Of a stretch of DNA of 64,000 nucleotides, positions 3-34,791 are shown in pieces. Below the pieces are notes generated by a model. That model saw only the letters and a program-made list of their open reading frames with translations, did no database searches and was not told where the DNA came from. This DNA is from a virus: IMG/VR virus record IMGVR_UViG_3300009001_000006, positions 1-64,000 of that record; one strand, written 5' to 3'. The translations under genes were made by a program, and so were the position numbers. The stretch's first letter is position 1; each line of letters begins with the position of its first letter.

Positions 3-1925
3 ATAAAGTTTCCTAAAAAAGTATATGATTTTCCTGATAGCATTAGCGATGATATTAATAATGACCAAATAATCAGCTGTAATATTAACGAAAATCCTTA
101 TGCAGACTGTATATCTTGTCGTGGGGTATGCCCAACAACAACAACTCCAACAACAACTCCAACAATAACTCCAACAACAACAACTCCAACAACAACAATA
201 CCGACACCGCCCCCACCAGTATGCTATATCAGATTGAGGTATAGACTATGTCCTGGTGTTACGCCTTCTCTAGAAGCTATGAAAAATCATTGGATAAGAA
301 CCATCACAGTTAAAGACGACCCCAATACTCCGTATACTATAGACGCTTGTGATCCAAATTTCTGGGGAATAGATGGAAGCCCTGGTCAACCAAGAAGTTT
401 TACAGCATACATTGAACAATTTCAGTCTTGCATAAGTATGAACTATGACGAGAGCATTAACCATGAGGACTTACCAAAAGATGAAGATGGAAATATTACA
501 GACGATAACGTTATTCATCAAAACATAATTATTAACACATATCAAACATATTACAATTACGAAGATTGTTTAAAAGCCAAATTTGGTTGTCCTCCTGAAA
601 CAACAACAACAACAACAACAGTAACAACACCTACAACACCCACAACACCTACAATACCACCCACAATACCCCCAACCAGCAGTCCAAAAACCCCCGGCAC
701 ACCAGCAACTATTACCGCAATTACAGTTACTCCAACAATAAAAAGACCACCAACCATAACAACCCCACCAACACGCCCAGGAACTACATTAACACCAACA
801 CCAGGATCTTGTTGTGCAACCATAGTAACACCAGATGCTCTTGGCGATACAATAGACATGCCATATGCTTATGTTGGTGTCATAGACTGTAGTATTGCTT
901 GGGGTGATTTATTTCAAAGATTTGAATCTGTATTTGTAGACGATACTACACATTGCCAAATAACAGATAATACGGGAACGGCGAACTATAGTTATTGCTC
1001 TGAGCTATCTAATATTAGACAATGTGAAGCTAATTATTATGATGAAATTTGCGGACCCGCTAAAGAGTATAGGCACTATGGTGATGGCAAGGGTTATTAT
1101 ATTCAATGCGTGGACGATGAAACTGGCGCACAGGATCAATGTTTTCCTGCTAGTAGATTTAGCTGTCCAGATTGTCCACAATGTCAAACTAGCGATCCAG
1201 GCTTTAAAGGCTGCATTAAAGATAGTGAAGGTAACAGAAAGAAATTTGGAAATGAATTTTGCACTTTTAATGGGGTACTCAGTGGTTCTACGCCATGTAG
1301 TGTGTTTGATGACCTTAAACAATGTTTAAAATTACAGTGTGAAAGTGGTTGTGGAACAGGTAATTGTACAGTTAGAAGCAAAGGCTTCTATGTTTTATGT
1401 GAAGAAAATGGAGTGACCACCTGCAGACCAACTGGATACTGGAGTTGTTGTCCCACAGCAGATACAAAAACAGGGTGTGCTGATGGTAATGAATTTAATC
1501 CACAAAATATTATTATTCCTTTATCTGCACAGGGCAGTCAAAACCCTTCAGCTATAAAAATAAGTATACCATTAACAGCTGCGTCTAACCATAATAGAAA
1601 TCAATATACAGCACCGGACGTTAGAATACCTCAGTCAACACAAACATTATTACCACCAAATTCTCAAATTCAAGTATTAAGCATTAACGGCACCCCTCCC
1701 TATAACACTGGTTTTGATATTAAGAATATTACAGTAGAACTTGATACATTAAGTGGCAGATTACTTGTTAATTTTGATGCGTCTTTATTTTATTGTGGGC
1801 CAGACTATGACAATAATCCAAGAGATTTATTTTTATGTCCTCCAGAAAATTTCACAGCAGACCTTAGCTCAAATGGTCAATGCTTTAATTGTGGAGATTT
1901 CGATAGTATTGTAATAGGAGCATAA
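3..1925 (+). CDS. Cys-rich, Thr/Pro-rich (mucin-like) protein, probable virion/surface protein; 5'-truncated
   Basis: The frame of the 234..1925 ORF stays open back to position 3 (IKFPKKVYDFP...CRGVCPTTTTPTTTP...). Cys-rich blocks alternate with PTTT/PT tracts. Confidence 0.7.
   Translation: MKFPKKVYDFPDSISDDINNDQIISCNINENPYADCISCRGVCPTTTTPTTTPTITPTTTTPTTTIPTPPPPVCYIRLRYRLCPGVTPSLEAMKNHWIRTITVKDDPNTPYTIDACDPNFWGIDGSPGQPRSFTAYIEQFQSCISMNYDESINHEDLPKDEDGNITDDNVIHQNIIINTYQTYYNYEDCLKAKFGCPPETTTTTTTVTTPTTPTTPTIPPTIPPTSSPKTPGTPATITAITVTPTIKRPPTITTPPTRPGTTLTPTPGSCCATIVTPDALGDTIDMPYAYVGVIDCSIAWGDLFQRFESVFVDDTTHCQITDNTGTANYSYCSELSNIRQCEANYYDEICGPAKEYRHYGDGKGYYIQCVDDETGAQDQCFPASRFSCPDCPQCQTSDPGFKGCIKDSEGNRKKFGNEFCTFNGVLSGSTPCSVFDDLKQCLKLQCESGCGTGNCTVRSKGFYVLCEENGVTTCRPTGYWSCCPTADTKTGCADGNEFNPQNIIIPLSAQGSQNPSAIKISIPLTAASNHNRNQYTAPDVRIPQSTQTLLPPNSQIQVLSINGTPPYNTGFDIKNITVELDTLSGRLLVNFDASLFYCGPDYDNNPRDLFLCPPENFTADLSSNGQCFNCGDFDSIVIGA
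131..220 (+). repeat. Coding low-complexity (CCAACAACAACT-like) tandem repeat encoding PTTT tract
   Basis: ccaacaacaacaactccaacaacaactccaacaataactcca... seen directly. Confidence 0.85.
592..802 (+). repeat. Second coding Thr/Pro low-complexity tract
   Basis: (aca)n run followed by PTTPTTPTIPPTIPPT...TPTP codons. Confidence 0.8.
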
Positions 1926-1931
1926 TTAAAA

Positions 1932-3026
1932 ATGAAATATGATTATCTTATAGTCGGATCTGGGCTTTTTGGATGCACCTTTGCTAATTTAGTGAAAAAT
2001 CATAATAAAACATGCTTAATCATAGAAAAAAGAAATCACGCCTATGGTAATTGCTATACAGAAAAAATTAATAATATTGATATCCATAAATATGGGCCGC
2101 ATATATTCCACACTAACTCAGAAAAGATATGGAATTATGTGAATAATTTTTCTAAATTCAATAATTTTATCAATAGGCCAAAAGTTAGCTATACGGGTAA
2201 ACTATATTCTTTTCCTATCAATTTAATGACATTACAACAACTCTGGGGGGTAAACACACCAGAACAAGCTGCTAAAAAAATAGAAAAAGAAAAACTAAAT
2301 ATCAGAAATCCACAGAACCTAGAAGAATGGATATTATCACAAGTTGGTGAAAAAATATATTATACTTTTATATACGGATACACAAAAAAGCAGTGGGGCA
2401 CAGAACCTAAAAATTTACCATCATTTATTATCAAAAGGCTTCCTATCAGATTAAATTTTAATGACAACTATTATTTTGATCAATATCAAGGTATACCTGT
2501 CAACGGATATTCAGAATTAATGACAAATATGACCGATGGTATAGAAATAGTATTGAATACAGATTACCTATCAAATAGAGAATATTGGGATAATCAAGCT
2601 CATCGCGTGGTCTATACTGGTGCTCTTGATGATTTTTTTAATCTAGAATATGGAACATTAGATTATCGTAGCTTGAAATTTGAACACAAGATATTGGAAA
2701 ACGTATCAGATTATCAGGGGAATGCTATTATAAATTATACAGATTATGACGTACCTTATACAAGAATTATAGAACATAAACATTTTACATTCGGGGAACA
2801 AAAAGATAGCGTTATTACAAAAGAATTCCCGCAAACATTCGGTAAAAACACAGATAAATATTATCCAATAAATAACGATAAAAATAATCATCTGTACAAT
2901 AAATATAAAGCTCAAACCCAAAATTTATCAAAAAAATATATCTTTGGTGGCAGACTTGCTGAATACAAATATTATGACATGCATCAAATTATTGGCTCCG
3001 CTATGAATAAATATGATAAACAATAA
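1932..3026 (+). CDS. glf: UDP-galactopyranose mutase
   Basis: YDYLIVGSGLFG FAD motif, HKYGPHIFHTN, YTKKQWG, GRLAEYKYYDMHQ. Confidence 0.97.
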   Translation: MKYDYLIVGSGLFGCTFANLVKNHNKTCLIIEKRNHAYGNCYTEKINNIDIHKYGPHIFHTNSEKIWNYVNNFSKFNNFINRPKVSYTGKLYSFPINLMTLQQLWGVNTPEQAAKKIEKEKLNIRNPQNLEEWILSQVGEKIYYTFIYGYTKKQWGTEPKNLPSFIIKRLPIRLNFNDNYYFDQYQGIPVNGYSELMTNMTDGIEIVLNTDYLSNREYWDNQAHRVVYTGALDDFFNLEYGTLDYRSLKFEHKILENVSDYQGNAIINYTDYDVPYTRIIEHKHFTFGEQKDSVITKEFPQTFGKNTDKYYPINNDKNNHLYNKYKAQTQNLSKKYIFGGRLAEYKYYDMHQIIGSAMNKYDKQ

Positions 3027-34054: not shown

Positions 34055-34059
34055 CATTT

Positions 34060-34791
34060 ATGATAAGAGCAAAACTTAAAGGCAGATTAGGAAACCAATT
34101 GTTTCAATATGCTATATGTAGAATAGTAGCAGAAAAAAATGGATATAATTATAGCATACCGAAAGAATGGCAGGGACAAAGACTATTTGAGTGTTCCCTT
34201 GGTGTTGATTGTACACATGAAGAAAATCTCAACACATTCAACGAAGGAGAAAACAAGTTTAACCCAGACGTGTTTAATGTAAAAGATAATACTATTATTG
34301 AGGGATTTTGGCAGTCTGATAAATATCTTGCTGGGTATGAAGAACAGGTTAAAGAATGGTTTAGGCCTAGCAAAATAAAACCAATAAAAATGAAAGATAA
34401 CACATGCGTCATACATTTGAGAATGAAAGACAGATATAATAGAGACTTAAAGTTACCTAAAGAATATTTTGAAACAGCAAAAGAAATCGTAAAAAGTAAA
34501 GTAGATCAATCTATTAAATTTTTAATAGTGACGGATAGTCCAGACGGGGCGAAAAGTTATTTTAAAGACGATAAAATAATAAGCAGCACCCTCACGGAGG
34601 ATTTTATAACTATCTATCAAGCCAGATATAAAATTATAAGTGCTTCTACTTTTTCTTGGTGGGCTAGTTGGCTGAATGCAACAGAGGACTCGTTGATTAT
34701 TGCTCCAAATAAATGGATGCATTACAATAAAATAAACAGTAATTTATTTTTTCCAAGAGATATTAAAACAGATAAATTTACATACATATAA
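34060..34791 (+). CDS. Alpha-1,2-fucosyltransferase (GT11)
   Basis: GRLGNQLFQYA, GFWQS, IHLR..D, STFSWWASWL, P..W. Confidence 0.92.
   Translation: MIRAKLKGRLGNQLFQYAICRIVAEKNGYNYSIPKEWQGQRLFECSLGVDCTHEENLNTFNEGENKFNPDVFNVKDNTIIEGFWQSDKYLAGYEEQVKEWFRPSKIKPIKMKDNTCVIHLRMKDRYNRDLKLPKEYFETAKEIVKSKVDQSIKFLIVTDSPDGAKSYFKDDKIISSTLTEDFITIYQARYKIISASTFSWWASWLNATEDSLIIAPNKWMHYNKINSNLFFPRDIKTDKFTYI

Follow-up and report, generated by a model that had tools for sequence, protein, structure and literature searches.

The initiation of mucin-type glycans is regarded as a eukaryotic trait. What, then, is to be made of a phage that encodes a glycosyltransferase (GT) of family GT60 together with proteins bearing runs of proline and threonine (PT tracts)? 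The question is raised by IMG/VR virus record IMGVR_UViG_3300009001_000006, a linear contig of 113,832 bp with ~34% G+C and an estimated completeness of 79%, that is, with ~21% of the genome missing; its first 64 kb are the window analysed here. The original prediction, made from these letters alone, held that the phage glycosylates its own Thr-rich appendages or capsid; the features on which it was built were confirmed, and its interpretation was borne out in part. With a probability of roughly 0.55, we favour a system encoded by the phage and working in the cytoplasm, in which the GT60 enzyme initiates the O-glycosylation of PT-tract proteins made by the phage itself.

The proposed initiator is encoded at 15385..16671 (+ strand). 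It matches the PF11397 profile over nearly the full length of the model (E 7.7e-67; 226.7 bits against a cut-off of 21), and the DSH motif (D95-S96-H97), which lies within the block QLDSHHRF (D95-S96-H97-H98-R99-F100), is invariant across 16 diverse homologues, so that the GT60-type enzyme expected from the letters was confirmed by profile search. An AlphaFold (AF2) model derived from 16 homologues reached a predicted local distance difference test score (pLDDT) of 89.9 and a predicted template modelling score (pTM) of 0.88. The top PDB matches of this model in Foldseek are GT27 polypeptide N-acetylgalactosamine (GalNAc) transferases (E 4.5e-9, probability 1.0), namely human T2, T4, T1, T10 and T12, fly PGANT9 and Toxoplasma T3, with ~250 aligned columns; a sequence search of the PDB returned no relative. 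The likeness to the animal and Toxoplasma enzymes extends over the GT-A catalytic domain, which in both types is followed by a C-terminal beta-rich domain, but identity is only ~16%, the CAZy families differ and no ricin-type lectin domain is apparent in the phage enzyme. We conclude that 15385–16671 encodes a true GT60-family member with, judging by the model, a polypeptide-GalNAc-transferase-like fold.

A characterised relative is the GT60-family enzyme of Trypanosoma cruzi, which adds alpha-linked N-acetylglucosamine (GlcNAc) to Thr of mucins, acts on the peptide KPP-T8-KPP and requires Mn2+; the core 2 O-glycans of this organism can bear galactofuranose (Galf) (PMC3769586). The phage enzyme belongs to the same Pfam family as the protist enzymes (T. 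cruzi TcOGNT-2, Dictyostelium Gnt2 and Gnt1) and keeps the DxH-type motif. In contrast to them, it carries an extra C-terminal beta domain of ~95 aa (approximately residues 335–428), which is retained throughout the phage subfamily, and it has no membrane helix in a hydropathy scan, hence lacking the type II anchor of the Gnt2/OGNT subtype. The protist enzymes act in the Golgi, whereas the soluble phage enzyme would act in the bacterial cytoplasm. The family is also far broader than its protist representatives: it comprises 3447 metagenome proteins with an E-value of 1e-10 or lower, no fewer than 578 viral loci and, among the genomes of bacterial species from many phyla, 457 stretches, and the nearest ESM Atlas clusters are 80–97% viral. 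Because GT60 is this common in phages and bacteria, the "eukaryote-like" glycan coat of the original prediction was an overstatement. A literature search found no paper connecting GT60 or PF11397 with phages.

A mucin-type system also needs acceptors, and dense Thr/Pro tracts are indeed encoded alongside GT60, in the first open reading frame (ORF) of the window and in two proteins of its 194.8-kb relative G002. ORF1 (3..1925, + strand), a candidate acceptor, is the C-terminal portion (640 aa) of a giant mucin-like protein rich in Cys; the start of the contig cuts off the 5' part of its gene. It contains 38 Cys and two Cys-flanked tracts, the first at 129..224 (+; residues 43–74, with 17 Thr) and the second at 588..815 (+; residues 196–271, with 31 Thr and 20 Pro in 76 aa). 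Tract 1 resembles the KPP-T8-KPP peptide, and the neighbouring gene glf, which starts 6 nt past the ORF1 stop, mirrors the presence of Galf on T. cruzi glycans. Only two ORFs of the whole 113.8-kb contig reach at least 14 P, T or S in 20 residues, ORF1 and 58366..61446. Both had been thought to carry long PT tracts between Cys-rich domains, a description that fits ORF1 with its two tracts and overreaches for the second protein, in which the linker is only 24 residues long.

In G002 the complete ORF1 homologue, of 2607 aa, combines 71 Cys with two Laminin_G_3 domains and numerous PT and poly-Pro tracts; a signal peptide is absent. Two small genes further upstream, an ORF of 1669 aa consists over ~1350 residues of nothing but PT, TPPAPP or poly-Pro repeat and then turns Cys-rich at its end; both mucin genes belong to one long co-directional block of glycan-type genes. 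Three independent contigs of close relatives start inside the ORF1-type gene (the window, position 3; G001, position 3; G021, L269:1). PT repeats evidently break assemblies, and metagenomes probably contain more proteins of this type than are counted. The contig of another relative, G008, has PT-rich genes at both its start and its end. A search for long homologues of the Cys-rich end of ORF1 found none, and neither ORF1 nor the 58366–61446 protein nor the neighbouring structural ORFs had an informative match in PHROGs or Pfam.

A strong coupling of GT60 to PT tracts is seen in gene neighbourhoods. The viral set comprised the best 80 of at least 578 GT60 loci with 10-kb flanks plus three earlier loci (83 in all), and the bacterial set the best 80 of 457 stretches (L289–L368); an ORF was scored as PT-rich if any 20-residue window held at least 13 P+T. 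A PT-rich ORF lies within 10 kb of GT60 in 50 of the 83 viral loci, preferentially just upstream: 23/82 neighbours at position −1 (28%) and 14/77 at position −2 (18%), together 37/159, are PT-rich, compared with 47/1290 (~4%) elsewhere (odds ratio 8.0, p 7e-16, uncorrected for kinship or shared ancestry). The bacterial loci, whose counts carry noise from ORF calling in high-GC genomes, gave 8/65 at −1 and 8/62 at −2, or 16/127 combined, versus 8/446 at other positions (odds ratio 7.9, p 2e-6, likewise uncorrected). The co-occurrence of GT60 with PT-rich genes thus holds at the neighbourhood level in phages and bacteria alike. BLAST sorts the 37 upstream neighbours in viruses into 24 families, so that the link of GT60 is to PT-richness rather than to one protein. 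On the GT60 tree, PT adjacency is scattered over all major clades, with at least eight changes forced by supported branches. Searched against PHROGs and Pfam, the PT-rich neighbours of other GT60 loci yield mostly the repeat itself, along with RCC1, VWA and InlB-B-repeat domains.

On bacterial chromosomes of many phyla, PT-rich genes stand just upstream of GT60 (for example L320:4442-5992, L356:4959-5747 on the − strand and L365:1965-5990). Some of their products start with a twin-arginine-like signal and others are Sphingomonas proteins of 1200–1340 aa, which hints at cytoplasmic glycosylation preceding export.

Within the phage lineage, PT tracts also occur in proteins of the tail module. 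The second candidate acceptor, and the candidate virion acceptor of the window, is the 1026-aa Cys-rich protein encoded at 58366..61446 (− strand), the last of four genes that follow the tape measure gene and, by its place in the gene order, presumably a tail-tip protein. Its 24-aa PT linker (58519..58590, −) precedes the Cys-rich domain at the C-terminus and has a CC motif on one side and a CWC motif on the other. In the GT60-positive relatives G023, G024 and G025 the linker is expanded at the same place to 18–20 P+T in 20 residues, and in G024 and G025 this tail protein is the sole PT-rich ORF of the genome. In two further loci (G011 and L248) GT60 lies beside a homologue of the 58366–61446 gene, followed by a small protein with up to 47% P+T. 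At locus L242 GT60 is itself within the tail module, between connector and tail-tube genes and directly behind the gene for a 908-aa PT-bearing protein; tail-tube-like genes and then the tape measure gene come downstream. The first 317 residues of this protein are homologous (E 2e-52) to the whole product of a tail-module gene of our contig (83277–84269), a 330-aa protein whose weak model (pLDDT 64) best matches tail terminators (E 0.014); the rest, a PT tract and a Cys-rich extension, is absent from that counterpart. The idea that the phage glycosylates its own appendages or capsid gains from these tail-module proteins among the PT-bearing neighbours in relatives; for ORF1 the idea has no such footing, since nothing places that protein in the virion.

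PT linkers are common spacers, and the tracts could be flexible, unmodified linkers, with GT60 acting on a host protein, a small molecule or some other target. The persistence of the tail-protein linker in the GT60-less relative G003, and the PT tracts of G008, which is also without GT60, are what this explanation would predict. It does not account for an eightfold enrichment of PT-richness at −1/−2 over unrelated neighbour families in phages as well as bacteria, and we consider it very doubtful.

Comparison of relatives is less favourable to an O-glycosylation system than the neighbourhoods are. GT60 is accessory in the lineage, being missing from the CheckV-complete relatives G006, G008, G012, G013 and G003. 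With duplicates removed, PT-rich ORFs occur in 7/7 GT60-positive types and 2/5 GT60-negative types, a contrast without statistical weight because the tree of capsid plus portal proteins contains just three independent GT60/PT contrasts in the lineage (sign test, p ~0.5). Several other observations weigh against the reading that we favour. G008 has seven PT-rich ORFs, some of them at the ORF1 locus, and G013 has one, yet neither has GT60; conversely, genomes of the G003/G005 type encode Glf and an extended GT/sulfotransferase island with no PT tract. This last is the case of relatives that keep the transferases and lack the tracts, which the original prediction would have counted against itself; the seven GT60-positive relatives examined, on the other hand, all carry PT-rich ORFs. 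The lack of correction for shared ancestry belongs on the same side of the ledger, as does the GT60 gene of jumbo phage XacN1, which has no annotated PT neighbour. Within the window GT60 is not adjacent to ORF1 but 13.5 kb away. No similarity between ORF1 and known virion proteins could be detected, and BLAST against the virion proteins of relatives gave no match either. Finally, many of the accompanying enzymes (GT25, GT4, GT2, Gmd, Fcl, Glf) are equally typical of polysaccharide loci.

These enzymes form an island, a ~35-kb co-directional row of soluble sugar-building enzymes on the + strand. Three of them would supply donors, as had been proposed, and their identity was upheld by both Pfam and NCBIfam: the UDP-galactopyranose mutase Glf (1932..3026; PF03275, E 2.3e-71; TIGR00031, 366 bits, above cut-off), for UDP-Galf, the GDP-L-fucose synthase Fcl (27494..28438; NF047922, E 5.5e-126; PF01370) and the GDP-mannose 4,6-dehydratase Gmd (28435..29403; PF16363, E 2e-104; TIGR01472, E 1e-104). 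The many other glycosyltransferase-like genes were likewise largely confirmed: a GT4 enzyme (8230..9321; PF00534, E 4e-16), a GT2 enzyme (17751..18677; PF00535, E 2.3e-8), a GT25 enzyme (18674..19420; PF01755, E 1.8e-21), a GT47 (exostosin)-like enzyme (31800..32744; PF03016, 35.5 bits against a cut-off of 33.4), a FUT8 (GT23)-like fucosyltransferase (33320..34054; PF19745, 28.5 bits, cut-off 27.6) and a GT11 fucosyltransferase-like protein (34060..34791; PF01531, E 8e-9), with a CAP59-like glycosyltransferase (6308..7141; PF11735, 28.6 bits, cut-off 28.8) remaining borderline. A carbohydrate-type sulfotransferase (Sulfotransfer_2; 32741..33316; PF03567, E 2.8e-11) is accompanied by a possible, very weakly matching second one (31159..31803; PF13469, E 0.029), and the island further encodes a phosphatase-like protein of the PAP2 family that lacks a strong membrane helix (11051..11794; PF01569, E 2.2e-9). 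Two more GT4 genes (51943..54668, +) lie beside the replication genes and are part of the lineage core, with homologues in all relatives.

Could the island instead remodel the host surface? Glf, Gmd, Fcl and transferases of families GT25, GT2 and GT4 are classic gene types of O-antigen and capsule loci, the PAP2-like protein has a faint undecaprenyl-diphosphatase match, and alteration of lipopolysaccharide, capsule or exopolysaccharide during infection could block superinfection or change the serotype, leaving the PT tracts unrelated. However, all transferases of the island are soluble in a hydropathy scan, and the same scan of the whole 113.8-kb contig, with ~21% of the genome unseen, revealed no polytopic membrane protein, so that flippases of the Wzx type, polymerases of the Wzy type, priming transferases of the WecA type and membrane-bound Gtr proteins are all missing from it, in agreement with what had been noticed at the outset. 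Together with the polypeptide-transferase fold modelled for GT60 and its coupling to PT genes, this makes host remodelling quite improbable.

A division of labour within the island deserves more attention, although we regard it, too, as unlikely. GT60 and one or two neighbours would modify PT tracts, and the greater part of the 35-kb block (Gmd, Fcl, GT11, FUT8-like, GT47-like, sulfotransferase, GT25, GT4) would serve another target, possibly host surface polysaccharide precursors or a different phage protein. Gene content of the island varies independently of GT60, though within the same co-directional block. The cassette at 31159–34791 (sulfotransferase, GT47-like, FUT8-like and GT11 genes) has no counterpart in G001 and G002 despite a capsid protein that is 98% identical, relatives without GT60 or PT tracts retain large GT/sulfotransferase islands, and the GT4 gene at 8230–9321, with homologues in G006, G008, G012 and G013, is, like the pair at 51943–54668, a core gene independent of GT60. 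Glycan-tailoring genes that vary between strains need not share one acceptor, and the assumption that the fucose and sulfate genes serve the same PT acceptor is not supported. Against such a split stand the location of the mucin genes within the same co-directional block and, again, the lack of any membrane-bound transferase, flippase or polymerase in the contig.

Sugars might also be destined for phage DNA. In mid-island, at 5781–8252 of the window, a nucleoside 2-deoxyribosyltransferase-like gene and a GMP reductase gene (NF003470, 477.7 bits) are kept across the lineage; with a dCMP deaminase and a dNMP kinase they make up a set of nucleotide genes in or near the island. A 264-aa protein (56527–57321) has a weak N-terminal match to a PvuRts1I-like domain (E 0.0015), and the recognition target of PvuRts1I is modified cytosine. 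No hydroxymethylase of the thymidylate-synthase type (PF00303) was found in the contig, in a search for which control genomes gave matches, and the fold and gene context of GT60 indicate protein acceptors, all of which renders DNA hypermodification extremely unlikely.

If the favoured scheme of O-glycosylation of PT-tract proteins is followed through, the soluble GT60 enzyme would, during infection, take a UDP-activated N-acetylhexosamine (UDP-GlcNAc, to judge from its homologues, with the DSH motif holding Mn2+) and place the first sugar on Thr of the phage PT tracts. Hydroxyproline is another possible site; a single prolyl-hydroxylase-type oxygenase (PF13640) is encoded in G002 only, outside the region covered by the window's contig. 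The likely acceptors would be the giant Cys-rich mucin-like protein that ends in ORF1 and the PT linker of the 58366–61446 protein. Some of the other soluble transferases may then lengthen the glycan, drawing on UDP-Galf from Glf and GDP-fucose from Gmd and Fcl, and the sulfotransferase may add sulfate. The glycoproteins would leave the cell at lysis, on or with the virion, and their Cys-rich domains would oxidise outside.

Metabolic and replication genes occupy the + strand from position 3 to ~58 kb and include those for GMP reductase, a sigma-70 region-4 protein, ClpP, class II ribonucleotide reductase, PhoH, RecA, DnaB, primase and a split DnaE. The two DnaE ORFs (window 47045–51392) enclose a DEDD-type exonuclease gene. 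The structural module, on the − strand at 58.4–108 kb, encodes the terminase, the capsid protein and a tape measure protein of 4356 aa. Next to the capsid gene, a four-gene cassette (86199–89688, −; L004:7199-10688) is without homologue in the closest relatives and appears to be a variable structural cassette; one of its genes matches tail-fibre/baseplate PHROGs. At the far end of the module an array of very Cys-rich proteins (100675–108057, −; L005:3675-11057) shares no sequence similarity with ORF1, though it is equally disulfide-rich in style, as is the tail protein. The end of the contig (110–113.8 kb; L005:13000-16832) is richer in G+C, and short translated motifs recur there in sequence of poor coding quality. 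Searches for tRNA genes and Rfam families gave zero matches and a promoter scan stayed at chance level.

More than 599 IMG/VR contigs encode a capsid protein at least 85% identical to that of this phage. The lineage has no close cultured phage: the best identity of its terminase to those of cultured phages is 29%, and the tail protein 58366–61446 found no match among them by tblastn. The "moraphage" paper (PMC12619734) was considered as an account of this lineage and rejected, as it treats another one. In G002 many genes, among them those for GT60, ribonucleotide reductase, DnaE-N and terminase (e.g., 101134–102418), are shortened or frame-broken and yet intact in the near-twin G001, so these are probably assembly errors rather than pseudogenes.

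Glycosylation of the own particle is, to our knowledge, documented for very few phages. Giant viruses provide a broader parallel: cytoplasmic glycosyltransferases and sugar-nucleotide enzymes of their own coat the chlorovirus capsid and the mimivirus fibrils, in eukaryotic hosts and with GT families other than those of the present phage. Among phages, the account in PMC12619734, citing Freeman et al. 2023, describes phage-encoded glycosylation of the mycobacteriophage virion, with glycans attached to capsid and tail-tube subunits at their C-termini. There, too, soluble phage-encoded transferases decorate the phage's own structural proteins, but the enzymes and sites in that account are others, and it features neither GT60 nor giant PT/Cys proteins. 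A bolder generalisation, which we put forward tentatively and would not wager on, is that GT60 and PT acceptors constitute a prokaryote-wide cytoplasmic module of mucin type, expanded in the present lineage to a strain-variable Galf, fucose and sulfate factory that covers the tail tip and giant, mucin-like fibres rich in disulfides, giving the phage a glycocalyx that could be compared with giant-virus fibrils and trypanosome mucins. What such a coat would be good for is a matter of speculation; shielding, adhesion and host baiting come to mind.

If the favoured reading is correct, a large and abundant lineage of uncultured aquatic phages would build mucin-like glycoproteins in the bacterial cytoplasm, and PT linkers would be a general target of GT60 enzymes in prokaryotes. 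Strain-variable cassettes of virion glycan genes would represent a new axis of phage diversity, and the glycans themselves could affect adsorption, the stickiness of the particles and grazing on them, or host recognition.

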